A stretch of 64,000 nt of DNA from Escherichia phage Mt1B1_P17: the sequence record NC_052662.1; one strand, given 5' to 3'. Below are positions 3,214-59,960 of this stretch, piece after piece (the first letter of the stretch is position 1; every line of letters starts with the position of its first letter). Position numbers and translations under genes: made by a program. The notes beneath the pieces are model-generated. The model worked only from the letters and a program-made list of their open reading frames with translations. It did not search any database and was not told the origin of the DNA.

Positions 3214-3450
3214 TTATTGATTGATGTTATAATGAAAATTATTTTCTTCAATAGCTTTTAAAATAAAAGCCGTGATCGCTTTCGTGTCTACTTGTTCGAA
3301 CGTATCGGAATAGCACCAATAATGATCATCCCCTACTTTCGGCGGGTAAACCTGGACAAGGAGATCGCCACCTGGTTGATCTATAAGCTCAACATGCAAG
3401 CCGGATGATTCAGCGGTTTTAACGGCGTTTAATACTGTTGCAATACTCAT
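3214..3450 (-). CDS. hypothetical early protein (78 aa)
   Basis: ORF; RBS; 5' hairpin GGGGCGGCAACGCCCC upstream. Confidence 0.45.
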   Translation of the reverse strand: MSIATVLNAVKTAESSGLHVELIDQPGGDLLVQVYPPKVGDDHYWCYSDTFEQVDTKAITAFILKAIEENNFHYNINQ

Positions 3451-3494
3451 AATCTTTCCCTTTCTGATGTGGGGCGTTGCCGCCCCTTTGTTGA

Positions 3495-3794
3495 TTAGAT
3501 CGCTGTTTCCAGTAGTTCGGCTAACGTCTTACCGCCTGATAGTTGGTCTAACGTTTGCTCTTCTGGCAAGAAATTAGCTGATATTAAACCGACTTGATTC
3601 CCTTTGTGCCAATTAGCTTGACGGATGATTCCATCCTTTAAGGATTTTACCGCCATTGTGCAACCGTCGCCAAATGATTCATTTTTATGATCCATCACTT
3701 CGTAAGCGCCCAGTTTGCTGCTGTTAGGCACCATTAACGCGAATACATCACCAACAACCAGTTTTTCTACGGTAACAATAGCGATAGTTTCCAT
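3495..3794 (-). CDS. hypothetical early protein (99 aa)
   Basis: ORF; RBS GAGGAAAG; cassette 3813..3869 upstream. Confidence 0.5.
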   Translation of the reverse strand: METIAIVTVEKLVVGDVFALMVPNSSKLGAYEVMDHKNESFGDGCTMAVKSLKDGIIRQANWHKGNQVGLISANFLPEEQTLDQLSGGKTLAELLETAI

Positions 3795-3812
3795 TTTACT
3801 TTCCTCATTATT

Positions 3813-3869
3813 GGCGGCACCATTGCCGCCCTACGTGGTAAATATTAGCACACTGGCGATCTGTGTCAA
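3813..3869 (-). promoter_or_regulatory. early promoter cassette: TTGACA-N16-TAATAT plus 5' stem-loop GGCGGCAATGGTGCCGCC
   Basis: -35 at 3864..3869, -10 at 3842..3847, hairpin 3813..3830 (minus-strand reading). Confidence 0.6.
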
Positions 3870-3875
3870 TACTTT

Positions 3876-4262
3876 TTATTCAATATAAATCAAATTATCT
3901 TCACCAATGTAAGCCGACACGTTCGGCATAAACTTAGCTGCATTGGTTAGGCGGTTCGCCGTGTTAGTGGTGTATATCTCAGGGCGATCCCAAAAGCCTA
4001 CGCCGTGACCGTTACGGGTAAAATGTAAATCATTCCCGATCTGGTTGGCTGTTGCGCCGTCGCTCATTGCCTCAGAGATAGCGGCAAGATTAGCATTAAT
4101 AAAGGCTGTTACATCCTGGGCGATCCGTTCGTCCGCGCTAGGAGAAAAATCATAATCGTCTAAGTTATCAATAAAATTACCTTCATGATCCCTTGCTGAT
4201 TCAGCAAAAATAAAGGCTTCTTTATAGCCGTTGATGATTTCAATAATGATTTCTGTTTTCAT
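3876..4262 (-). CDS. hypothetical early protein (128 aa)
   Basis: ORF; start overlaps stop of upstream gene. Confidence 0.5.
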   Translation of the reverse strand: MKTEIIIEIINGYKEAFIFAESARDHEGNFIDNLDDYDFSPSADERIAQDVTAFINANLAAISEAMSDGATANQIGNDLHFTRNGHGVGFWDRPEIYTTNTANRLTNAAKFMPNVSAYIGEDNLIYIE

Positions 4263-5953: not shown

Positions 5954-6115
5954 CTATTTGTTAGCCGGATTATATGCCAGGACCGCGCCACTTGCTTTCA
6001 CGCTTTCCGCTTCATAGTTGCGCAGATCGTTTTCTGTAAGATTGAGCGCGATCACTTCCTCGATCTCAACGCCAGCGGCAAGGGCGATCTCTTTGATAAT
6101 ATCTGTTGTTTTCAT
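5954..6115 (-). CDS. hypothetical small protein, about 53 aa
   Basis: Internal Met (MKTTDIIKEI) with RBS AAGGTG. Confidence 0.4.
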   Translation of the reverse strand: MKTTDIIKEIALAAGVEIEEVIALNLTENDLRNYEAESVKASGAVLAYNPANK

Positions 6116-6127
6116 GGTGTGCACCTT

Positions 6128-6247
6128 ATAAGATGATTGATAAGATAGTGACAACGAAAGCGATTATACTGATGGCAAATGTCATCTTTTTACCTTCGGA
6201 TACTGCCGGATTCTCTACCGTGTATTCTACTGTGTACTTGCTCATCG
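6128..6247 (-). CDS. small membrane protein, about 39 aa (C-terminal hydrophobic helix)
   Basis: ATG at 6247 with RBS; TTGCAA-N18-TATTTA promoter and 5' hairpin upstream. Confidence 0.4.
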
Positions 6248-6343
6248 TGTAATCCTCTCGTTTGCTTTGGGAACTATTCCCGCCGCCCTATGAATTAAAT
6301 ATACACTATCTCAAAATGATTGCAAGCCTTTTTCTAAATTATT

Positions 6344-6628
6344 TTATGCAGTAAACAAACCATCATTTACAACGGCGGCGATGATCTCCCGTGCCATTGA
6401 TTCAGGGAAAGGGGCGCTATAGTCCTGGCTTGTCTCATCGGTATCGGTGATCCAATGATAAGCTAACGAGTAAAAGCCTTTACTAACTGTTTTCAGTGAG
6501 ATGATGATCACTCGGTCAAGCTTATTGGTGAATGTTGCCGTTAATGTGTTACCCTCCTGCGTCATGTTGGACAAGTAAGCGAGATCATTAATCAGGGAAA
6601 ACATTAGCACGGTGTTAGCTTTACTCAT
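6344..6628 (-). CDS. hypothetical early protein, about 94 aa
   Basis: Start moved to internal Met (MSKANTV) after the hairpin; RBS GAGGATG. Confidence 0.5.
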   Translation of the reverse strand: MSKANTVLMFSLINDLAYLSNMTQEGNTLTATFTNKLDRVIIISLKTVSKGFYSLAYHWITDTDETSQDYSAPFPESMAREIIAAVVNDGLFTA

Positions 6629-6699
6629 GATTGCATCCTCAAAGGGGCGCGGCACCATTGCCGCCCTACACGATAACTATAACACAATGTAAAACAGGA

Positions 6700-6906
6700 T
6701 CAACCTTTATTTTTCCACGGTGTCAGCTTGTTAATCATTGGTGATAAATAGCGTTTACCAACGTAAAACAGTACGCCAACTGATGCAACGGCGGCGACCT
6801 CATGCAAGGAGGAAGGACGCGCGGTGTCATAGTAGGTACCAATAATAGCAATAGCGGCTACTGCGGCAATGTCTGTAATAATTTTTTCTTGTTTTGTTGT
6901 GATCAT
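6700..6906 (-). CDS. small membrane protein (68 aa)
   Basis: Hydrophobic stretches; RBS; 5' hairpin GGCGGGGAATAGTTCCCCACC upstream. Confidence 0.45.
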   Translation of the reverse strand: MITTKQEKIITDIAAVAAIAIIGTYYDTARPSSLHEVAAVASVGVLFYVGKRYLSPMINKLTPWKNKG

Positions 6907-6991
6907 AATATTTACCTTTTTGTATGGTGGGGAACTATTCCCCGCCTGATGTAATACAGTTTAACAGGTCCGGTTATGGTGTCAACCACTT

Positions 6992-50792: not shown

Positions 50793-51587
50793 TTGAGCAA
50801 GTTGAACACACTTGATCAATATTACACTAACCCCGCTTATGCGGGGTTCTTATGTGATAAGATCAAAGAAATTTTTGGAGAGGAAGCTAACTACGTAGAA
50901 CCATCTGCGGGAGAAGGAGCTTTCTCTTCTTGTTTTAAAAACATAACTTCTTTTGATATTGACCCTAAGTTTGAAGATTGTATTGAGGCAGATTTTTTAG
51001 CTCAATCTGTTGAGTCTGTTGGTAGTGTAACTGCTTTTGTCGGTAATCCTCCATTTGGAAAAAATGCTAGTCTTGCCATTAAATTCTTTAACCATTGTGC
51101 TGAAATGCTGGATAACGAAGGTGGTATTTGTTTTATCTTGCCTCGCACATTTCAAAAAATCTTTTTTGCACACAAGCTAAATCCCCATATGCATCTTCTT
51201 TACGAAGAAGAATGTCCAAAAGGATCTTTTATTCTTCATGGAGAACCTTGGGATGTTCCTTGTGTATTCCAGGTATGGATTAAACGCAACGAGAAGCGTT
51301 CTCCCGTTGTTTTAGGAGAGAATCGACTATTCGTATTAGGTAACAGTAAAGACTACGATATAGCCGTTAGGAGAGCGGGAGCAAGTGCAGGTAAAGTGTT
51401 ATCAGAAGAAGATTCTTTATCTGAAGCATCTACCTATTTTTTAAAAGCCTTGACTTCTGATCTTAAAACGCGTATCATTGAGGCTTACCCGTTACTTAAA
51501 GCTGAAGCTAGTAAAACTGCGGGAGTAAGAAGTTTAAGTTTAAAAGAACTTCAGTGGGTTCTGGAGAACATTAGAAAGGAGGAATAG
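50793..51587 (+). CDS. DNA methyltransferase (N6-adenine/N4-cytosine type)
   Basis: SAM-binding motif EPSAGEGAF and catalytic motif GNPPFG; TTG start with RBS AAGGAGGA. Confidence 0.6.
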   Translation: MSKLNTLDQYYTNPAYAGFLCDKIKEIFGEEANYVEPSAGEGAFSSCFKNITSFDIDPKFEDCIEADFLAQSVESVGSVTAFVGNPPFGKNASLAIKFFNHCAEMLDNEGGICFILPRTFQKIFFAHKLNPHMHLLYEEECPKGSFILHGEPWDVPCVFQVWIKRNEKRSPVVLGENRLFVLGNSKDYDIAVRRAGASAGKVLSEEDSLSEASTYFLKALTSDLKTRIIEAYPLLKAEASKTAGVRSLSLKELQWVLENIRKEE

Positions 51588-54184
51588 TGAGTAAGTTTAC
51601 ATGGGATATTGAAGCAAACGGATTGTTGAATAATGACACTATTGATTATTTAGCTAGTCCTTATCGTCTCAAAGACACATTTCAAATGCACTGTATTGTC
51701 TTAGAGAACCATGAAACAGGAGAAATAGTAGCTTTCCACGATGGCCCTAAATACATCTTTGATGGGCGTCCTTATGAAGAGTCAGATGGTAAATACACAT
51801 ATGTTCTTAAAGAGTATGTGGCGCAAGATTACACACATTTTCAACTAAAAGATTTCCCAGATTTTATTAATCATGAAGGTTATTTTAAAGACAAGCCTGA
51901 ATATCTGGTTGAAATGGCTGTGGCTCACAACGGTATCAACTACGACTGGTTGGCTACAAAACTGTTTTATGGATTAGATTACAGTGTTAAATATAATACG
52001 TGGGGCAAAAATAAGGTAAAACTTATTGACTCCTTGATTTTGAGTAAAGTGTTAAACCCAGATCGAAAGATTGAGGGCAAATCAGGACATAGCTTGGCAG
52101 CACTTTCTCGAAAAGCAGGTGGTGATGTAAAAATAGATTTCCGTAAAGAGATTCCAGAAGAAGATCGATTTAAGACTTTTGCTGCGGATATGCTTTATTA
52201 CTGTATCTATGACAACAAAGCCAATACGAGCGTATATAATTACCTTATGGAAGAATGGGGTGATTATGATAAATGGGAAGGTCCATTTGAACTTGAACAA
52301 CGTGTAGCAGACATTATTACACGCCAGGAACACCGTGGGTTTGCTTTTAACATGAAACAAGCAGAAGAGAACCTTGCTTTTTTGGATGCAGAAATGGAGC
52401 GTCTTCGTTTACTCGTTGAGCCTATTTTGCCACCTAAACCAGCAACAAAAGGTTATCTTAAGGCTTTTATTCCACCTAAGTTGCAAATTAAAAAGAACTT
52501 AGAGCCAACTAACCATATGATCAATTTTGCTAAGAAACATGATGGTCATTTGGAAGAGAGGGATGGCGATTGGTGGTTAGTTATGTTGGGGAAAGAGTGG
52601 AAACTGCCAGTTGCAGCAGATGAGCCTCTATGTGATCCTAACATTCCTGCAACATTGAACGATACAACCCATATTAAAAACTGGCTTGTAGGATTAGGTT
52701 GGGTACCGTCTGAATATAAAGATAAAGACTTGACTCTTAAATCTGGCACCAAGATTAAAAAGAGCGAGGAAGAACTTCAGAAAGGTATTCGAGCTTACGT
52801 TGAGCAAACCCTATCTTCTAATTTTTGTCAGGATCGTTGTGATCATCTGGAGTGCACACCGGAAACCCTGGAAAGGAAGATTCAAGAGCGTATAGCAAAA
52901 GGTAAAGGTCGCGGTCTTAAAGTATTGACTAACCCGTGTTTTACCAAAGGTCAGGAAAAAGAAATTTGTCCTAACCTGCAAGCTTTGGGTGAGAAGTTTC
53001 CTTATGCTACACAGATTGTAGAATACTTAACGTATAAGCATCGTAGGAACTCTATTTTAGGTGGCGGTGCTGATTGGGAAGAAGATGAAGAAGATCAAGA
53101 ATACGATAAAGGTTTCTTAGCCGCAGTAAGGGCGGATGGGCGTATTCCTACCCCAGCCGCTACATGTGATGCTGCAACCTCTCGTATGAAGCATAGATCT
53201 GTAGCTAATATTCCTCGTGTCACATCTTTGTTTGGATGGGAGATGCGTAACTTGTTTGGTGTAGAGGTTCCTAAATACTTCCAGATCGGCTACGATTTCG
53301 ACTCTTTGGAAGCAAAAATTGAATCACACTACTGTTGGCGGTACGAGCCGGAGCCACACGAATATTGTAACGCTCTGTTGTTAGAGAAACCTAATGATGT
53401 TCACACAATGATGGCAAAACGTATCACTGAAACTATTGGACGTAAATTTGAACGTAGTCCTGCTAAATCTGTTAAGTATGGTATTACCTATGGTGCACAA
53501 GCCGACAAGGTTGCTAAAACAATTGGTAGCGATAAGTTTACAGGTCAATTGGTGTTTGATGCTTTCTGGGAAGCTGCATTCCCATTGGCGCGTCTTAAAG
53601 AACGTTTAAACGATTTCTGGGTTAAGACTGGTAAACAATATGTTTTGGGTATTGACGGTCGTAAGGTTCCTACTCGTTCTGCTCACGCGATTCTTAACTC
53701 TCTATTCCAAAGCGGCGGGGTTATCTGTGCTAAACGTGCAATGGTTATTTATGACGACATGATCGAAGAAGAAGGGCTAAGTGTTGACTTCTTTAAAGAT
53801 GACTGGAAGAATAAAGACTTCGTGCAACAAATGATCGCATATCACGATGAAGCCCAGCTTGAAGTTTCTCGTAACCTTGTAGAATTTAAATGGTTTTCAC
53901 CTGAATCATTAGGTTGGAAGAAAGTAGACGATCCTGAAGAACAAAAGAAAATTGATAAAGAATGCCTTGCTAAAGTTGAAGAATGGAAGCATAATAAGGA
54001 AAAAGAGACGGGACAAATTTGGGCTAACATTCATGAATCTCCCAAAGGTGGATGGTTTACAGCCTATAGTCGGGCAGGTGAACTCGCTGCTTTAGCTGTT
54101 ACTAAGGCTGGAGAATTTTACAATCTTAATGTTCAGCTTACTGCCGGATATGATGTGGGTAACTCCTGGGCATCCTGTCATTGA
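51587..54184 (+). CDS. family A DNA polymerase, T7 gp5-like, with 3'-5' exonuclease domain
   Basis: Exo I motif WDIEANGLL, DGRKVPTRSAHAILNSLFQSGG and C-terminal ...WASCH recalling T7 DNA polymerase; GTG start. Confidence 0.85.
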   Translation: MSKFTWDIEANGLLNNDTIDYLASPYRLKDTFQMHCIVLENHETGEIVAFHDGPKYIFDGRPYEESDGKYTYVLKEYVAQDYTHFQLKDFPDFINHEGYFKDKPEYLVEMAVAHNGINYDWLATKLFYGLDYSVKYNTWGKNKVKLIDSLILSKVLNPDRKIEGKSGHSLAALSRKAGGDVKIDFRKEIPEEDRFKTFAADMLYYCIYDNKANTSVYNYLMEEWGDYDKWEGPFELEQRVADIITRQEHRGFAFNMKQAEENLAFLDAEMERLRLLVEPILPPKPATKGYLKAFIPPKLQIKKNLEPTNHMINFAKKHDGHLEERDGDWWLVMLGKEWKLPVAADEPLCDPNIPATLNDTTHIKNWLVGLGWVPSEYKDKDLTLKSGTKIKKSEEELQKGIRAYVEQTLSSNFCQDRCDHLECTPETLERKIQERIAKGKGRGLKVLTNPCFTKGQEKEICPNLQALGEKFPYATQIVEYLTYKHRRNSILGGGADWEEDEEDQEYDKGFLAAVRADGRIPTPAATCDAATSRMKHRSVANIPRVTSLFGWEMRNLFGVEVPKYFQIGYDFDSLEAKIESHYCWRYEPEPHEYCNALLLEKPNDVHTMMAKRITETIGRKFERSPAKSVKYGITYGAQADKVAKTIGSDKFTGQLVFDAFWEAAFPLARLKERLNDFWVKTGKQYVLGIDGRKVPTRSAHAILNSLFQSGGVICAKRAMVIYDDMIEEEGLSVDFFKDDWKNKDFVQQMIAYHDEAQLEVSRNLVEFKWFSPESLGWKKVDDPEEQKKIDKECLAKVEEWKHNKEKETGQIWANIHESPKGGWFTAYSRAGELAALAVTKAGEFYNLNVQLTAGYDVGNSWASCH

Positions 54185-54202
54185 TCTAACGTATTGTTTT
54201 AT

Positions 54203-54223
54203 AAGGGGCTTCTGCCCCTTTAT
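54203..54223 (+). terminator. intrinsic terminator AGGGGC-TTCT-GCCCCT
   Basis: Hairpin directly after DNA polymerase stop. Confidence 0.55.
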
Positions 54224-54233
54224 AGGAGAAGAT

Positions 54234-54425
54234 ATGAGTTACGATTTAGATTATTTTGGTATGCCTTACCTACCAGATGAATTTGAAGGCGAAGAAGAAC
54301 GTGAATGGGACGATGGGGATATCCGTTGTTGGTCTTGTGGTAAAGATATGTCTTATGAACAACATATGCACAATGATGGTTTCTGCATACATTGTTATAA
54401 TGAAATTGATTTGGAGGAAGATTAA
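54234..54425 (+). CDS. small acidic Cys-containing protein, about 63 aa
   Basis: Internal Met with RBS AGGAGAAG. Confidence 0.4.
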   Translation: MSYDLDYFGMPYLPDEFEGEEEREWDDGDIRCWSCGKDMSYEQHMHNDGFCIHCYNEIDLEED

Positions 54426-54602: not shown

Positions 54603-54821
54603 ATGCGTAAATTAGTGAGCTTTAATGTTTCAATTCTTGTTGATGAACAAAATGAAGATGTTATTAAAGGTCTTGCAAATAAGATTGCAGGTGGAATGAC
54701 GGAAGCTGAAGTGTGGGAAGAATGTGCTCGACTTTATGAGGAAGGTGTTATTGAGGTCTTGGGGGATGAGATTAATATGGACGATGTTGTAAAAGTAACT
54801 GTGGAGCGTATCAATGACTAA
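54603..54821 (+). CDS. hypothetical acidic protein (72 aa)
   Basis: ORF; RBS AAGGAGAAAA. Confidence 0.4.
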   Translation: MRKLVSFNVSILVDEQNEDVIKGLANKIAGGMTEAEVWEECARLYEEGVIEVLGDEINMDDVVKVTVERIND

Positions 54822-55407
54822 ATCAAAACAAATCAATATTGCCAAAGAAATTCTTACCGTATTAAAGATCGCTGATCCTAATTCTGTCTTGGCTGGCGGT
54901 GCTGTTCGTGATTGGCGTATTCTTGATATTGCTGGACGTGATCTGGATTTCTATACATCCCTTCCTGCACATCGGACTGAAGAACAAATACAAGGATTAA
55001 TTGCATCTGCTTTAATGGGAACCAATATTCGTAAACTAGGAAACAAAGAGGCTTCTGACAATTATGAAGGTGTTACTGGTCTTAAACACGTTTTTGAGTT
55101 TGAACGTGATGGTCAGCTTTGCAACCTTATGATTATGGAACCAAGCGTAATGACAACCTTTCTAAATGAGTTCGATCTGTCCATCTGCCAGGCTGCATTT
55201 GATGGGAAGGACTGTTATTATTCTAAAGATTTTGAAACAACCTTGGAAACAGGGATCTGCTTCTTGCACAAAGATGTTAGAGAAGATGCCAAACATGTTA
55301 TTAAAATTGCTACACGTTTTCCATATCTTCGTTTTGTGAAAGAGGTTAAGGTTCCACGTCCACCTCAAGTAGATACCAGATTGGAAGAAGATGATATTCC
55401 TTGGTAA
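54814..55407 (+). CDS. minimal nucleotidyltransferase (Pol-beta superfamily; CCA-adding/poly(A)-polymerase-like head)
   Basis: GGAVRD followed by DLD motif (LAGGAVRDWRILDIAGRDLDFYT). Confidence 0.45.
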   Translation: MTKSKQINIAKEILTVLKIADPNSVLAGGAVRDWRILDIAGRDLDFYTSLPAHRTEEQIQGLIASALMGTNIRKLGNKEASDNYEGVTGLKHVFEFERDGQLCNLMIMEPSVMTTFLNEFDLSICQAAFDGKDCYYSKDFETTLETGICFLHKDVREDAKHVIKIATRFPYLRFVKEVKVPRPPQVDTRLEEDDIPW

Positions 55408-55861: not shown

Positions 55862-56794
55862 ATGTCCGTAATTAATACTGAAACTGATCGTAAAGGCAAA
55901 ACCGTAACTTATGCAACTGGTATCGTAGACTACGTTAAACTGGATAAATTCGCTGAACCTAAAACTTTTCATTGGGAAGGAAAAACGATTGTTTCAACTC
56001 ACCGAGCTTCTCTTGTTCTGAAAGAGAAAGGTGCTAAACCAGATGAGAAAGGTGTTTGGATTTCTCTTGGTGACATTGAACTGAAAGAAGGTTATGAAAA
56101 CCTGCAAGTCAAAGAAGGTGATAATTGGATCACTATTGAAAAAGGTGTAGAAGTAAGTATTGATATTGATCGCGTTGATAATAAAGGCGGTAAAACTTAC
56201 TACAATACTAAAAAATCTCGTATTACAGTATTGTCTACCGATGGTGTTCAGAAGTCTAACAAATCTTCTGGCAATAAAGGTTCCAACGATGCTGCTCCTA
56301 AGCAGTCCTATAAAAAACGTGATACCGTAGGCCTGGAAACTGGTCACGCAGTAAATGGTGCACTGGAACTGATTCGTAATGGTGTTAAAGGCGATGCTTT
56401 CGATATCGCTGGGGTTGTTCAATCTGCAACTGTCACACTGAAATCGGAAATTGCTGAATCTCGTGGCGTTGATATTAATGATTATGATCTTGGGGCGTCT
56501 GTTGGTCACGCTATCCTCAATGCTTGTAAAGACCATACCATTAAGACTGTATCTGTAGAAGATTTGATTGACTCTGCTCGTAAAGTTCTAGCTTTGTCTG
56601 ATAAAGTTGCTGCTGCCATTCGTGGTTCCGTAGAACAACCTAAGAAAGAAGAGAAGAAAGAAGTTAAAAAGCCTGAACCACAACCAGAACCAACTCCAAG
56701 TAATCAAGAAGAACCTCCAATGGACTTCGATGATGATATTCCATTTGCCCCTATTGGACTGCAATATGGTCGAAACTTCCTGCATTGCTTCTAA
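55862..56794 (+). CDS. single-stranded DNA-binding protein with E. coli SSB-like acidic tail motif
   Basis: Gly/Ser-rich linker then ...EEPPMDFDDDIPF, followed by 15 further codons before the stop. Confidence 0.5.
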   Translation: MSVINTETDRKGKTVTYATGIVDYVKLDKFAEPKTFHWEGKTIVSTHRASLVLKEKGAKPDEKGVWISLGDIELKEGYENLQVKEGDNWITIEKGVEVSIDIDRVDNKGGKTYYNTKKSRITVLSTDGVQKSNKSSGNKGSNDAAPKQSYKKRDTVGLETGHAVNGALELIRNGVKGDAFDIAGVVQSATVTLKSEIAESRGVDINDYDLGASVGHAILNACKDHTIKTVSVEDLIDSARKVLALSDKVAAAIRGSVEQPKKEEKKEVKKPEPQPEPTPSNQEEPPMDFDDDIPFAPIGLQYGRNFLHCF

Positions 56795-57260
56795 GGTTTG
56801 TTTCAAGTGCGGGGTGTTAAAGCCCCTCACTGAATTTTACAAACATAAAGCTATGGCTGACGGTCACGTCAATAAATGCAAAGAATGTAATAAGAAAGAT
56901 GTTAAACAGAATCGTAAAGATAAATCTGAATATTACAAAGAGTATGATAAAAACAGAGATCAGACCCCAGAGCGCAAAGCTTTAAAAGAGGCTTACGCAA
57001 AAGGGAAAGGTAAAGATAAGGCTAATGAAGCTAAGAAACGTTACATCGAAAAGAATCCGAAAAAACGTTCTGCTCATATAGCTGTAGGTAACGCACTACG
57101 AGATGGAAAGTTAATAAAACAACCTTGCCAAGTGTGTGGGTCTGTTGATGTTCATGCTCATCATTGTGATTATGATAAACCGTTAGATGTTCTATGGCTG
57201 TGTCCTCTGCACCATGAAGCTTGGCATCAAGAACATGGGGAAGGGTTGAACGCTGAATAA
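56766..57260 (+). CDS. HNH homing-endonuclease-like protein
   Basis: N-terminal Cys cluster CFKCG...CKEC and C-terminal HNH motif VHAHHCDYDKPLDVLWLCPLHH; start uncertain (56730 or 56766), overlaps the SSB 3' end. Confidence 0.6.
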   Translation: MVETSCIASKVCFKCGVLKPLTEFYKHKAMADGHVNKCKECNKKDVKQNRKDKSEYYKEYDKNRDQTPERKALKEAYAKGKGKDKANEAKKRYIEKNPKKRSAHIAVGNALRDGKLIKQPCQVCGSVDVHAHHCDYDKPLDVLWLCPLHHEAWHQEHGEGLNAE

Positions 57261-57265
57261 AAGAA

Positions 57266-57290
57266 AGGAGCCAAATGGCTCCTTTTCTTA
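57266..57290. terminator. bidirectional terminator AGGAGCC-AAAT-GGCTCCT between convergent genes
   Basis: Perfect 7-bp stem with T-rich runs on both strands. Confidence 0.6.
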
Positions 57291-59960
57291 TTTATAACCC
57301 GAAGGAATATTGTTATAATCAGAAAGTTTTGTGCAATACCTGAATAGGTAACTATTAGCTACTCCACCTAATGTATTTGTTAATGTTGTTCCTGTTCCTG
57401 TAAGATTTGTGCATCCACTAAAGAAAGAAGATAATGCTCCACGTTTACCACAAACAGTTAACCCTGGGTTGTCATTAAAGATTTTATTAAAATCTGTAAG
57501 TGCTAAACAACCTTGGAATGTAGCTGTTAAAGAGGTCACTTTCGTTGGAATATTATCAAACATTCCTGCTGGAACTTCTGCAAGAGAGGTGCAATCTTTA
57601 AAGGTGTAAGAATATCTTGTAACTTTTGATAGATTCTTAAATAAATCTGAAGGAATAGATGTTAAAGATGTACAACCTTCAAACGTGCTTGACATTGTTG
57701 TCATTGAAGGAAATAAAGTATCACTGAATAATCCTTCAGGGATAGCTGTCAAACTTGTGCAGCCAGAGAAGATACCACTTATAGATGTTCCGGTGTAAGA
57801 TGTGTTACTAAAACAATCAGAAGTTATTCGTCTTAAGTTAGCACAACCTTTTAAGAATTGTGAGGCTGGACTTGTAGAATAACCAATTCTGTTGCCGCCC
57901 CATAATTCTAAAAGATCTGGATTTGCTTCCATAGACACATCAACACTATTCACTACTGAAGCACTTGCAAATTCAATAGCCAGTCTATATTCTCCTGCTG
58001 GATAACTATCCACTGTAGAGAAAGCTTTATTTCTAAATATTACTTTATTTGAAGGTATTACAACGTCATCCACCTTAACTACAAAGTTAGCTGGTGTGAC
58101 AGTACCCGATAAAATTGGGAACGTAATTGCCCCATCTGCCGAGTGGTTGAAATATCCGTTTAGAACCGTTAAACTACTACTCGGAGATGGAGCTAACTCC
58201 TTTCCCGCAACAGCATTCACCGTTAAATAAGAACTATCGGAAGCGGTAACAACACCTTGATACGTAGCTGTGCAACCAATCCTACAACCACCATCACCAA
58301 CACCAGTTATTACACCAGTTGTAGGATCTACTGTAGCAACACTAGGATCTGTAGTTGTATATTCAACAACCATGCCAGGTAAGCTTGCTGCCCCTGTTGG
58401 CGTTATTTCTGCTACCATTGTTTGTGTTGTTCCTACATCCATCGCAGATAAGCTAGGAGTGTAAACGCTCAATGTTGAAGCATATCCTCCAGAGGTATCT
58501 GATAAAGTTGTTCCTTCAGCGTTTAAGGCTGTCATACCTGCATCAAAACCACCTTCTGCATGGAAAGTCATTAAACCAGTAGATGATATTGTCATGTTTG
58601 CAGGGGCAGAAGAAGTGTATTTAATATTGAAAAGTTTACCTCCTTCTGGGCTAACAGAATGTGTCAACTGTTTAGTTCCACCTACAATACAAATTCCTAA
58701 AGAATCTGTAGTTAAGCCAGTTGCCAGAATATCACCCGTAATCACGGAGCTTGCTATTGGTGTGAATTTATTATAGTTTAGACCACTATTGAACAGATAA
58801 GAGGCTTTCCCATCTTTCCAAATACCGGAATAATACATATCTCCATTATAAACGAAAAAGGTTCCTTGATAACCTAATTGGTTAGTAATATCCATATTCA
58901 GCGTATGAACGCTTGTGAGCTTGTTTATATCCCAGGAACCCACTCCTTCAGGTTTAACTGGTTTTCCCACTTGGAGTGGATCTCCGCTCGCAGAATCATA
59001 CCCCAAACCTAAGTTTGCAGTATAGTTCTTACCAATAGCCCACAAGGAATTATTGATCCCAACGAAAAAAGAGTGGCGGCTTGGTGGAAATTTCCATGTT
59101 GAGAAACCTGCTGCAAAGGTATCCAGTTTAGTGTAGGTTGTTTCTGTATTAGACCTGACATATAAGTAGTTTACCGTGCCCGTACCACCGGAGGTATCTC
59201 CTACAACTATTGTCTGGGAAACTGTATTGATGTAATCTTTGACATACACTGTTTCAGTAGTGGATATCGTGGCATTGACAAAAGCGGTTGTTGTGTTATT
59301 ATTACCTGCTAAACCTTTACTGGCTCCACAAACACGCAAGGTTCCCACATTGTTGACATAAGAGCATTGGTTGTAACCTGCATCAAAAGCAATTGCTGCA
59401 CTTGTTATCTGACGAGGAGTAGAAACCTCGTTAGTAGTACTTGCACCTAAACTACCTACTGTGTTTTGACCTGATCCATAAAGAACACCACTATTCATTA
59501 ACCAGAGAGTGTTGTTATATCCTCCCTTAACCTCTTTAAGATTGGCTAAAGAGATAGTCCCTGTTATTACAGATGGAAAGCTGGTCCAAGTAGTTACACA
59601 TGCGTCCGTACCACCTGCTGCTATAGATCCTACCAATCCTGCTGTCAATCCTGAATATTGCCATCCCCCACTGTTAGTTTTAATAACAAAACAACGATCT
59701 GCGGTAAACACATCCGCTACTACAGTAGAAGCTAAGTGGAAATTATTGAATCGTGCACTACGAGTTCCATCTGCAATCTCACCAAAAAGGTTTGCGCCTT
59801 GAGTAAACAATCTACCATCATTAAGCAAAATTGCTAAACTGCTGTTAGAATTACCAGCATTATCTGGGTAATCTAAAGTGATTACTTTTTTAACAATACC
59901 TGCTGGCAGAGGAACGACACCAGTGCTGGTCATAATAGTAAATATTGGAATTGGAAACAT
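57288..59960 (-). CDS. tail fibre / receptor-binding protein with C-terminal leucine-rich-repeat-like (BspA-type) module
   Basis: 890 aa, G/T/S/N-rich; C-terminal repeats of F.GCTSLT.IP..LF about every 25 aa; RBS GGAGGG. Confidence 0.55.
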   Translation of the reverse strand: MFPIPIFTIMTSTGVVPLPAGIVKKVITLDYPDNAGNSNSSLAILLNDGRLFTQGANLFGEIADGTRSARFNNFHLASTVVADVFTADRCFVIKTNSGGWQYSGLTAGLVGSIAAGGTDACVTTWTSFPSVITGTISLANLKEVKGGYNNTLWLMNSGVLYGSGQNTVGSLGASTTNEVSTPRQITSAAIAFDAGYNQCSYVNNVGTLRVCGASKGLAGNNNTTTAFVNATISTTETVYVKDYINTVSQTIVVGDTSGGTGTVNYLYVRSNTETTYTKLDTFAAGFSTWKFPPSRHSFFVGINNSLWAIGKNYTANLGLGYDSASGDPLQVGKPVKPEGVGSWDINKLTSVHTLNMDITNQLGYQGTFFVYNGDMYYSGIWKDGKASYLFNSGLNYNKFTPIASSVITGDILATGLTTDSLGICIVGGTKQLTHSVSPEGGKLFNIKYTSSAPANMTISSTGLMTFHAEGGFDAGMTALNAEGTTLSDTSGGYASTLSVYTPSLSAMDVGTTQTMVAEITPTGAASLPGMVVEYTTTDPSVATVDPTTGVITGVGDGGCRIGCTATYQGVVTASDSSYLTVNAVAGKELAPSPSSSLTVLNGYFNHSADGAITFPILSGTVTPANFVVKVDDVVIPSNKVIFRNKAFSTVDSYPAGEYRLAIEFASASVVNSVDVSMEANPDLLELWGGNRIGYSTSPASQFLKGCANLRRITSDCFSNTSYTGTSISGIFSGCTSLTAIPEGLFSDTLFPSMTTMSSTFEGCTSLTSIPSDLFKNLSKVTRYSYTFKDCTSLAEVPAGMFDNIPTKVTSLTATFQGCLALTDFNKIFNDNPGLTVCGKRGALSSFFSGCTNLTGTGTTLTNTLGGVANSYLFRYCTKLSDYNNIPSGYK

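Follow-up and report, generated by a model that had tools for sequence, protein, structure and literature searches.

Gad2 (Gabija anti-defence 2) is known from Bacillus phage SPbetaL7 and from a Brevibacillus laterosporus prophage. Knockout of gad2 renders SPbetaL7 fully sensitive to Gabija, and Gabija no longer protects when the homologue from B. laterosporus is present; expression of the SPbetaL7 protein is toxic to B. subtilis, and Gad2 has a nucleotidyltransferase domain according to an AlphaFold prediction (bioRxiv 10.1101/2023.05.01.538930). Gabija itself has been described as a system that targets the ends of phage DNA once RecBCD has been antagonised, and a review of February 2026 considers the mechanism of Gad2 still to be elucidated (PMC12904381). 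Here we analyse a gene within a 64,000-nucleotide (64-kb) stretch of Escherichia phage Mt1B1_P17 (NC_052662.1), referred to as the window, whose 197-residue product, which we call NTase, had been picked out in an original prediction as a minimal nucleotidyltransferase with a GGAVRD head motif. We find that NTase is, with little doubt, a stand-alone Pol-beta/class II-type head domain, belonging to a family homologous to the N-terminal domain of Gad2; the heads of CCA-adding enzymes and poly(A) polymerases are more remote homologues. As to function, we propose a replication-module nucleotidyltransferase with a Gad2-like counter-defence role, a reading that we largely infer and to which we assign a probability of roughly 0.4.

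A stand-alone nucleotidyltransferase head domain

The open reading frame (ORF) behind the original prediction is borne out as a real gene, as its 197 codons start with ATG, follow a GGAG ribosome-binding site, and match PHROG 10174 ('nucleotidyltransferase', E = 6.5e-63) as well as phrog_1614 (E = 5e-11). A protein at least 95% identical (95–100%) is encoded in 63 phage records, and judged by such sequence comparisons the ORF is a conserved gene. The motif is equally real: GGAVRD occupies residues 28–33 and DLD residues 43–45, and the pattern GG.[VIP]RD.{7,12}D.D occurs a single time in the six-frame translation of the window and in none of 200 shuffles. Conservation was tabulated for 150 diverse family members with a mean column identity of 15%, a set to which the family percentages below refer. 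In addition to the invariant residues of motif A (Table 1), positions Q6, A10, D21, A27, A30, R32, D33, Y84, K164 and F169 are conserved in at least 90% of the members, and the C-terminal helix motif is marked by K164 (97%), F169 (90%) and P170 (79%).

Profile comparison aligns D43 and D45 with D40 and D42 of a class II enzyme (PDB 1MIV), along with the N-terminal helix and the remainder of motif A, and a search of PDB sequences with the 150-sequence profile gives the same class II motif A alignment. The spacer within motif A is one residue longer in NTase than in E. coli Cca. An AlphaFold2 model of NTase has a mean predicted local distance difference test score (pLDDT) of 88.7 and a predicted template modelling score (pTM) of 0.81, and the top matches of this model in a Foldseek search of the PDB are solely class II tRNA nucleotidyltransferases (E = 3.5e-5, template modelling (TM) scores of 0.52–0.56 over ~190 columns). 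An HMM (hidden Markov model) or structure search had been suggested in the original prediction as a check on its assignment, which stands, since the motif aligns with the catalytic aspartates and the fold is that of a class II head rather than something else. Searches with NTase alone are less telling: the head-domain family PF01743 scores 13.9 bits, where the gathering threshold is 23 (E = 0.07, profile positions 3–41 of 126), an NCBIfam scan returns sub-threshold matches to CCA enzymes, and phmmer against PDB sequences yields chance matches only. At the level of the family, PF01743 is matched by 36 of the 150 members at E ≤ 0.01 (best E = 3.9e-5), and no other Pfam family recurs.

What NTase lacks is as informative as what it keeps. 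At 197 residues it is, as had been noted from the start, far shorter than the class II enzymes it matches (370–450 residues), and it has no neck, body or tail domain. No arginine pair corresponding to motif B (RRD) is conserved among the 150 members, NTase reading NEFD-LSICQ at this point and the family consensus being F-x-x-S-I-C; the correspondence was set by eye and from the Gad2 alignment, not by structural superposition. Nor does the conservation table of the 150 members contain a conserved [ED]DxxR that could represent motif D; residues 157–161 of NTase read EDAKH, at positions that vary in the family. Class II enzymes cannot do without EDxxR, which serves them as the nucleotide template (PMC11784652). 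With RRD, EDxxR and the tRNA-holding domains all gone, it is unlikely that NTase carries out CCA or A addition in the class II manner.

Class II heads have the sheet order 3-4-5-2-1-6-7, with additional strands after beta5 (PMC11646218), so that beta5 (residues 101–108 in our model) adjoins the strand bearing DxD. Gln or Asn occupies the inward-facing position 104 on beta5 in 96% of the family; position 95 on beta4, with which position 104 is paired, is Asp or Glu in just 65%. With positions assigned from strand topology in the model, the canonical third carboxylate next to DxD thus appears not to be conserved.

Relationship to Gad2

Several relatives of NTase carry precomputed matches to PF26128, a family whose database name is 'Gad2'. 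Starting from Gad2 sequences that Yirmiya et al. list in their Supplementary Table 10 (bioRxiv 10.1101/2023.05.01.538930), we found PF26128 on all 120 of the 120 best homologues of bona fide Gad2, which establishes that this family is indeed Gabija anti-defence 2. Among relatives of NTase, a 60% identical protein (P0009) has a 'faint' PF26128 match and a 37% identical one (P0016) a full match.

Direct profile alignment with hhalign agrees with these matches. The family aligns with the experimentally verified B. laterosporus Gad2 at a probability of 90.8% (E = 1.2e-6), with an alignment of nine Gad2 homologues at 96.8% (E = 2.8e-10), and with one of forty at 96.4% (E = 1.2e-9, 114 columns); the corresponding comparison with E. 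coli Cca gives 21.8% over 24 columns. The family thus appears much closer to Gad2 than to Cca. In the opposite direction, an HMM of the Gad2 N-terminal domain, run against 200 family members, detects 61 at E ≤ 1e-3 and 111 at E ≤ 0.01, and it detects none of 279 decoy ORFs from the window. The aligned stretch runs from the AGG loop through DxD and the Gln of beta5 to the FDxxxC strand, and ends at about Gad2 residue 148. The residues that are invariant in Gad2, namely G31, G32, D45, D47, Y49, Q89 and D107, are equivalent to G28, G29, D43, D45, Y47, N104 and D121 of NTase, and Gad2 S36 is left unmatched. From these alignments, the closest characterised relative of the NTase family is Gad2, and not a tRNA-repair enzyme. 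A sequence search detected no experimental structure of Gad2 or of any member of the family.

A large family of short phage proteins

An exhaustive HMM search places the family at 3,795 clusters (50% identity) at E ≤ 1e-3, of which 1,484 are retained at E ≤ 1e-10. Its members are found mostly in phage genomes and phage-like contigs as stand-alone proteins of ~190 residues, with lengths of 170–220 residues in nearly all of the 150 listed representatives of the roughly 3,800 clusters. In a fold search against models of viral proteins, this small fold recurs in many phages, among them LKD16, phiAS7, Cd1, PP2, Ninurta and ICP1 (ORF223), where it is usually labelled 'Poly A polymerase head domain' or 'nucleotidyltransferase'. 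We found no characterised phage head-only CCA-type enzyme in the literature.

A few members depart from the standard length. N-terminal extensions of 100–210 residues are present in P0102 (400 residues), P0084 (316), P0077 (284) and P0195 (310); these extensions have no counterpart in the phage collection, and no Pfam domain hinting at a function was found in N- or C-terminally extended members. We considered whether P0102 might be Gad2 itself and rejected this, because its nucleotidyltransferase domain is C-terminal and that of Gad2 is N-terminal; in tblastn it matched no Bacillus phage, and other phages matched the C-terminal nucleotidyltransferase part only. ICP1 ORF223 (locus L002, 3956–4375) is a truncated homologue of ~139 residues that matches residues 4–127 only and so lacks the C-terminal third bearing the K164/FP motif. 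It lies among small ORFs of unknown function, with a DNA ligase gene ~2 kb upstream, and is itself upstream of NAD-salvage genes for phosphoribosyl pyrophosphate (PRPP) synthetase and nicotinate phosphoribosyltransferase.

The C-terminal tip and an SSB-like neighbour

The single-stranded DNA-binding protein (SSB) of E. coli ends in ...PPMDFDDDIPF, and acidic tails with an aromatic end are also found on phage replication proteins of the T7 gp2.5 type. NTase ends in a similar way (Table 1), and ...DDIPW-COOH is kept in 9 of its 11 close homologues. Outside the clade of NTase, five divergent family members end in an acidic stretch followed by [ILV]P[FW], and a few more have other acidic, aromatic-ended tails. 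From this resemblance, the tip could serve as a docking peptide that fits the SSB-tip pockets of replication and repair proteins, whether these belong to the host or to the phage.

Within the window the tip motif occurs only in NTase and in an SSB-like protein encoded a short distance downstream. The SSB-like protein of phage anhysbys stops exactly after PPMDFDDDIPF; those of the window, nieznany and phi92 continue for 15 residues (APIGLQYGRNFLHCF), so that their tip is not C-terminal, and the protein therefore comes in two allelic forms, with or without the extension. We rejected the idea that the extension is an artefact of an HNH insertion, as it is identical in phi92, where no HNH gene is present at that site. 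The SSB-like genes compared include those at 3363–4250 of locus L011 and at 6026–6973 of locus L007.

The HNH/endonuclease VII-type gene in question (ORF 56730–57260; PHROG 2340, E = 1e-48) constitutes a ~500-bp insertion or deletion at about 56747–57254, which the window shares with nieznany and ZCKP1 and which anhysbys lacks, with matching coverage gaps in many other Phapecoctavirus records. It behaves like a mobile homing-endonuclease cassette that has inserted beside the SSB-like gene. A second HNH gene, lacking in the window, lies between the polymerase and the small ORFs in nieznany.

Gad1 is the other anti-Gabija protein. An SSB-tip-like DDD[IV]PFEHKE lies within the sequence of three Gad1 homologues, which come from gut phages that infect RF39 bacteria (Supplementary Table 9, bioRxiv 10.1101/2023.05.01.538930). 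The occurrence of SSB-tip-like peptides in two unrelated families of anti-Gabija type may be a coincidence, or it may be that Gabija or its trigger involves an SSB-tip pocket.

Genomic context and prior annotation

The NTase gene had been described as lying in the replication block between small acidic ORFs, and its surroundings agree with this, with a DNA polymerase gene upstream and the SSB-like gene downstream (Table 1). The isoelectric points (pI) of the flanking products are low, at 4.05, 4.50 and 4.22 for the small upstream ORFs and 5.46 for a downstream ORF of 130 residues. The short overlap between the nearest upstream ORF and the start of NTase suggests translational coupling. The order polymerase, then NTase, with primase-helicase further upstream, is shared by the window, nieznany, phi92 and loci L013 and L018. 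In a Zobellviridae vibriophage (locus L008) the homologous gene follows and overlaps a gene for a 5'-3' exonuclease, and in loci L004, L009 and L014 it sits among genes for ribonucleotide reductase, thymidine kinase, NT5C, glutaredoxin, ThyX or deoxynucleoside monophosphate (dNMP) kinase. There are no tRNA genes in the 64-kb window, and no RNA ligase/Pnkp module was seen beside any family member in the contexts inspected. The 130-residue downstream gene was considered as a conserved partner and rejected, since it co-occurs with NTase only within a Stephanstirmvirinae-like lineage, which makes this synteny and not a demonstrated partnership.

Table 1 Features of the NTase region, numbered from the first nucleotide of the window
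Feature	Position	Strand	Remarks
Family A DNA polymerase	51587..54184	+	Upstream of NTase
72-residue acidic ORF (pI 4.2)	54603..54821	+	Upstream of NTase; stop overlaps the NTase start by 8 nt
GGAG ribosome-binding site	54803..54806	+	7 nt 5' of the ATG; direct sequence reading
NTase ORF, 197 aa (stop codon included)	54814..55407	+	Head-domain-only Pol-beta/class II-type nucleotidyltransferase of a short Gad2-like phage family; PHROG, AlphaFold2, Foldseek, hhalign
Motif A, residues 26–48 (LAGGAVRDWRILDIAGRDLDFYT)	54889..54957	+	G28, G29, W34, D43 and D45 invariant in 150 diverse family members
beta4-beta5 hairpin, residues 95–104	55096..55125	+	E at 95, N at 104; AlphaFold2 model and conservation
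FDLSICQAAF strand, residues 120–129	55171..55200	+	Counterpart of Gad2 FDFTVCMG; resembles 'DFTINA' of class II motif B
C-terminal helix motif K-x4-[FY]-P, residues 161–172 (HVIKIATRFPYL)	55294..55329	+	Conservation table
LEEDDIPW-COOH tip of NTase	55384..55404	+	Resembles bacterial SSB tip DDDIPF
SSB-like ORF	55862..56794	+	PPMDFDDDIPF at residues 285–295 (nt 56714–56746), then 15 further residues

Among the three acidic ORFs upstream, the one at 54129–54425 (annotated form 54234–54425, 63 residues; pI 4.05; conserved as PHROG 25582) contains two CxxC pairs (CWSCG...CIHCY) that give it a zinc-ribbon-like look. On the opposite strand, directly after the replication block, lies a gene for an 890-residue tail protein with precomputed WD40_RLD and Big_2 matches (57288–59960, minus strand), which marks an abrupt module boundary after the SSB-like and HNH genes.

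The window belongs to a Phapecoctavirus, a genus that comprises the phAPEC8-like E. coli myoviruses of the Stephanstirmvirinae. The genomes of ZCKP1, nieznany and anhysbys, which belong to this genus, are 97–99% DNA-identical to the NTase region, the ZCKP1 region being 97.5% identical to the window. GenBank labels the gene 'putative tRNA nucleotidyl transferase / poly(A) polymerase' or 'nucleotidyltransferase', the former label having been carried over from the annotation of phAPEC8; the original prediction thus re-derived, from sequence alone, an annotation that already existed. Proteins 97–100% identical to NTase are also encoded in MG065650.1, OP562383.1, MH252123.1 and OR584014.1, records named as Campylobacter, Acinetobacter and Klebsiella phages. 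The odd host names of such near-identical records suggest that hosts were mislabelled, that there was contamination, or that the host range is unusually broad. A protein 60% identical to NTase is encoded in the record of a Pseudomonas phage.

Proposed function and alternatives

We propose that NTase is made together with the replication genes and that its GG loop, with D43 and D45, would bind a nucleoside triphosphate (NTP) with Mg2+ and transfer a nucleotidyl group. Without RRD, the EDxxR template and the tRNA-holding domains, it would not build CCA on tRNA as class II enzymes do. Its site of action would be replicating phage DNA, with exposed DNA or RNA 3' ends, or a protein bound there, as the substrate, and it could be recruited by docking of the ...EEDDIPW tip into pockets that normally receive the SSB tip DDDIPF. 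The outcome would be that phage DNA is shielded, as by Gad2, from those host nucleases that monitor DNA ends, of which Gabija is the foremost candidate.

A number of observations weigh against this proposal. NTase on its own scores only 3.9 bits (E about 1) with the HMM of the Gad2 N-terminal domain and a probability of 3% against Gad2 in hhalign, and no Pfam match is on record for it; its link to Gad2 is, in these sequence comparisons, a transitive one that passes via the family. Gad2 is a protein of ~400 residues whose C-terminal half, ~230 residues long, is absent from NTase and may be the part relevant to Gabija, and where NTase reads VRDW, Gad2 reads ITSLF. No carboxylate is conserved at the expected sites of the third acid, and catalysis is accordingly not assured. 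The SSB-like tip is specific to the clade of NTase: the phi92 homologue and the majority of family members lack it, and it ends in W where the SSB tip ends in F. Replication modules also house many early and middle phage genes whose functions are unrelated.

A broader version of the proposal is that short Gad2-like nucleotidyltransferases form a module of phage replisomes that is widespread, enzymatic and devoted to anti-defence or DNA protection. In the clade of NTase, the tip would deliver the head to SSB-organised proteins or DNA ends; by nucleotidylating a 3' end there, or a host or defence protein that interacts with SSB, the head would blind DNA-end surveillance such as Gabija. We regard this generalisation as unlikely. 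Were it true, the E. coli phage gene would be the first tractable handle on the mechanism of Gad2, and the head of a CCA-adding enzyme would have been repurposed for immune evasion.

The function favoured in the original prediction was repair of tRNA 3' ends, in which the head would add C or A to damaged tRNAs or would tail RNAs, perhaps with an RNA-binding partner. Phage-encoded CCA-adding enzymes for tRNA repair do exist (PMC7824862), and the motif-B-like strand FDLSICQA is retained, but the parts that such a reaction uses (RRD, the EDxxR template, and the domains that form neck, body and tail) are missing, the PF01743 score stays under threshold, and the family lies far nearer to Gad2 than to Cca. 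Its genes, moreover, adjoin those for DNA polymerase, exonuclease and ribonucleotide reductase, not RNA ligase/Pnkp or tRNA genes, and overall we consider a role in tRNA repair or RNA tailing improbable. It is somewhat easier to imagine, if still unlikely, that NTase makes or consumes a small nucleotide compound, such as a dinucleotide or a modified NTP, which would mislead or inhibit defence nucleases that sense nucleotides, or would feed nucleotide metabolism; a nucleotide signal had been among the suggestions of the original prediction. The best structural matches are to enzymes that extend polynucleotides, however, and a mimic of the SSB tip is hard to explain on a soluble metabolic enzyme. 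The acidity of NTase is no argument here, since the head of E. coli Cca is equally acidic (pI 5.5) and charge therefore does not discriminate between nucleic-acid and other substrates.

The tip takes on a more direct role if NTase is a protein-modifying enzyme, with DDIPW docking on SSB-binding host proteins such as exonuclease I, RecQ or PriA, or on a defence helicase or nuclease, and the head disabling the target by transfer of AMP or another nucleoside monophosphate; this would overlap with the replisome anti-defence module described above. Conservation of the tip sequence and the toxicity of SPbetaL7 Gad2 in B. subtilis, which fits an action on host components, speak for such a scheme, and minimal Pol-beta nucleotidyltransferases that modify proteins exist, for example MNT of HEPN-MNT. 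On the other hand, we know of no class II-type head that modifies proteins, and the tip is missing from most of the family, which leaves the scheme rather unlikely in our estimation. Finally, NTase could be a degenerate, non-catalytic head that acts as a structural or regulatory accessory of the replisome, or that carries an SSB-like tip in competition with host SSB for its partners. Loss of motifs B and D and the lack of a conserved third carboxylate (Gln or Asn at position 104 in 96%, Asp or Glu at 95 in 65%) would fit. Yet G28, G29, D43 and D45 show no variation in 150 sequences with so little identity otherwise, R32 and D33 hardly vary, and the class II literature treats DxD as the catalytic carboxylates. 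Such purifying selection on the NTP-Mg site argues for catalysis and makes a non-catalytic role, to our mind, very improbable.

Comparison with known systems

The gene was already catalogued and its superfamily is known. What our analysis adds is that the customary tRNA/poly(A) label is poorly supported and probably misleading, as the protein keeps only the NTP-binding core; that the nearest characterised relative is Gad2; and that the family consists of short proteins reduced to the head, in which the RDW motif of class II enzymes is kept, with the clade of NTase bearing an SSB-tip mimic. A version that is small and soluble, comes from an E. coli phage and bears an obvious candidate docking peptide would be convenient for finding what Gad2-type enzymes modify. 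If NTase is only a replication accessory or is inactive, the result is an ordinary refinement of annotation.

With the class II enzymes, NTase shares motif A in the form GGxVRD-x(8-9)-DxD and the head fold, including the strands after beta5; it differs from them in gene context, which is DNA replication for NTase and RNA repair for the class II comparison. A stand-alone 'CCA-adding enzyme head domain' of 191 residues is known from Streptococcus pneumoniae (NP_344798.1, PDB 2LA3). Unlike NTase, this protein is bacterial, and it shows no sequence similarity to the family profile among the profile-search matches listed. The minimal nucleotidyltransferases of toxin and defence systems are more remote: MenT/AbiEii and the MNT of HEPN-MNT are structurally much farther from NTase than class II heads are, their motif set is GSx...DxD as opposed to GGxxRDW in NTase, and the PADLOC models for MNT, MenT/AbiEii and CD-NTase gave no match. 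NTase resembles bacterial SSB in the tip, as the free C-terminus of either protein consists of acidic residues and then I-P-aromatic; in NTase this tip is attached to an enzyme domain and in SSB to an OB-fold (oligonucleotide/oligosaccharide-binding fold) binder of single-stranded DNA.

The comparison with Gad2 is the closest. Common to Gad2 and the family are AGG...DxD-[FIV]-Y, a Gln or Asn on beta5, and the FDxxxC strand, and both are encoded by phages or prophages and have no assigned biochemical activity. The DDIPW tip of NTase is found on none of the Gad2 proteins checked, and the family reads GGA[PV]RDW where Gad2 has GGxITSLF. Since it has kept this class II-like motif, the family sits, in sequence, between the class II heads and Gad2.

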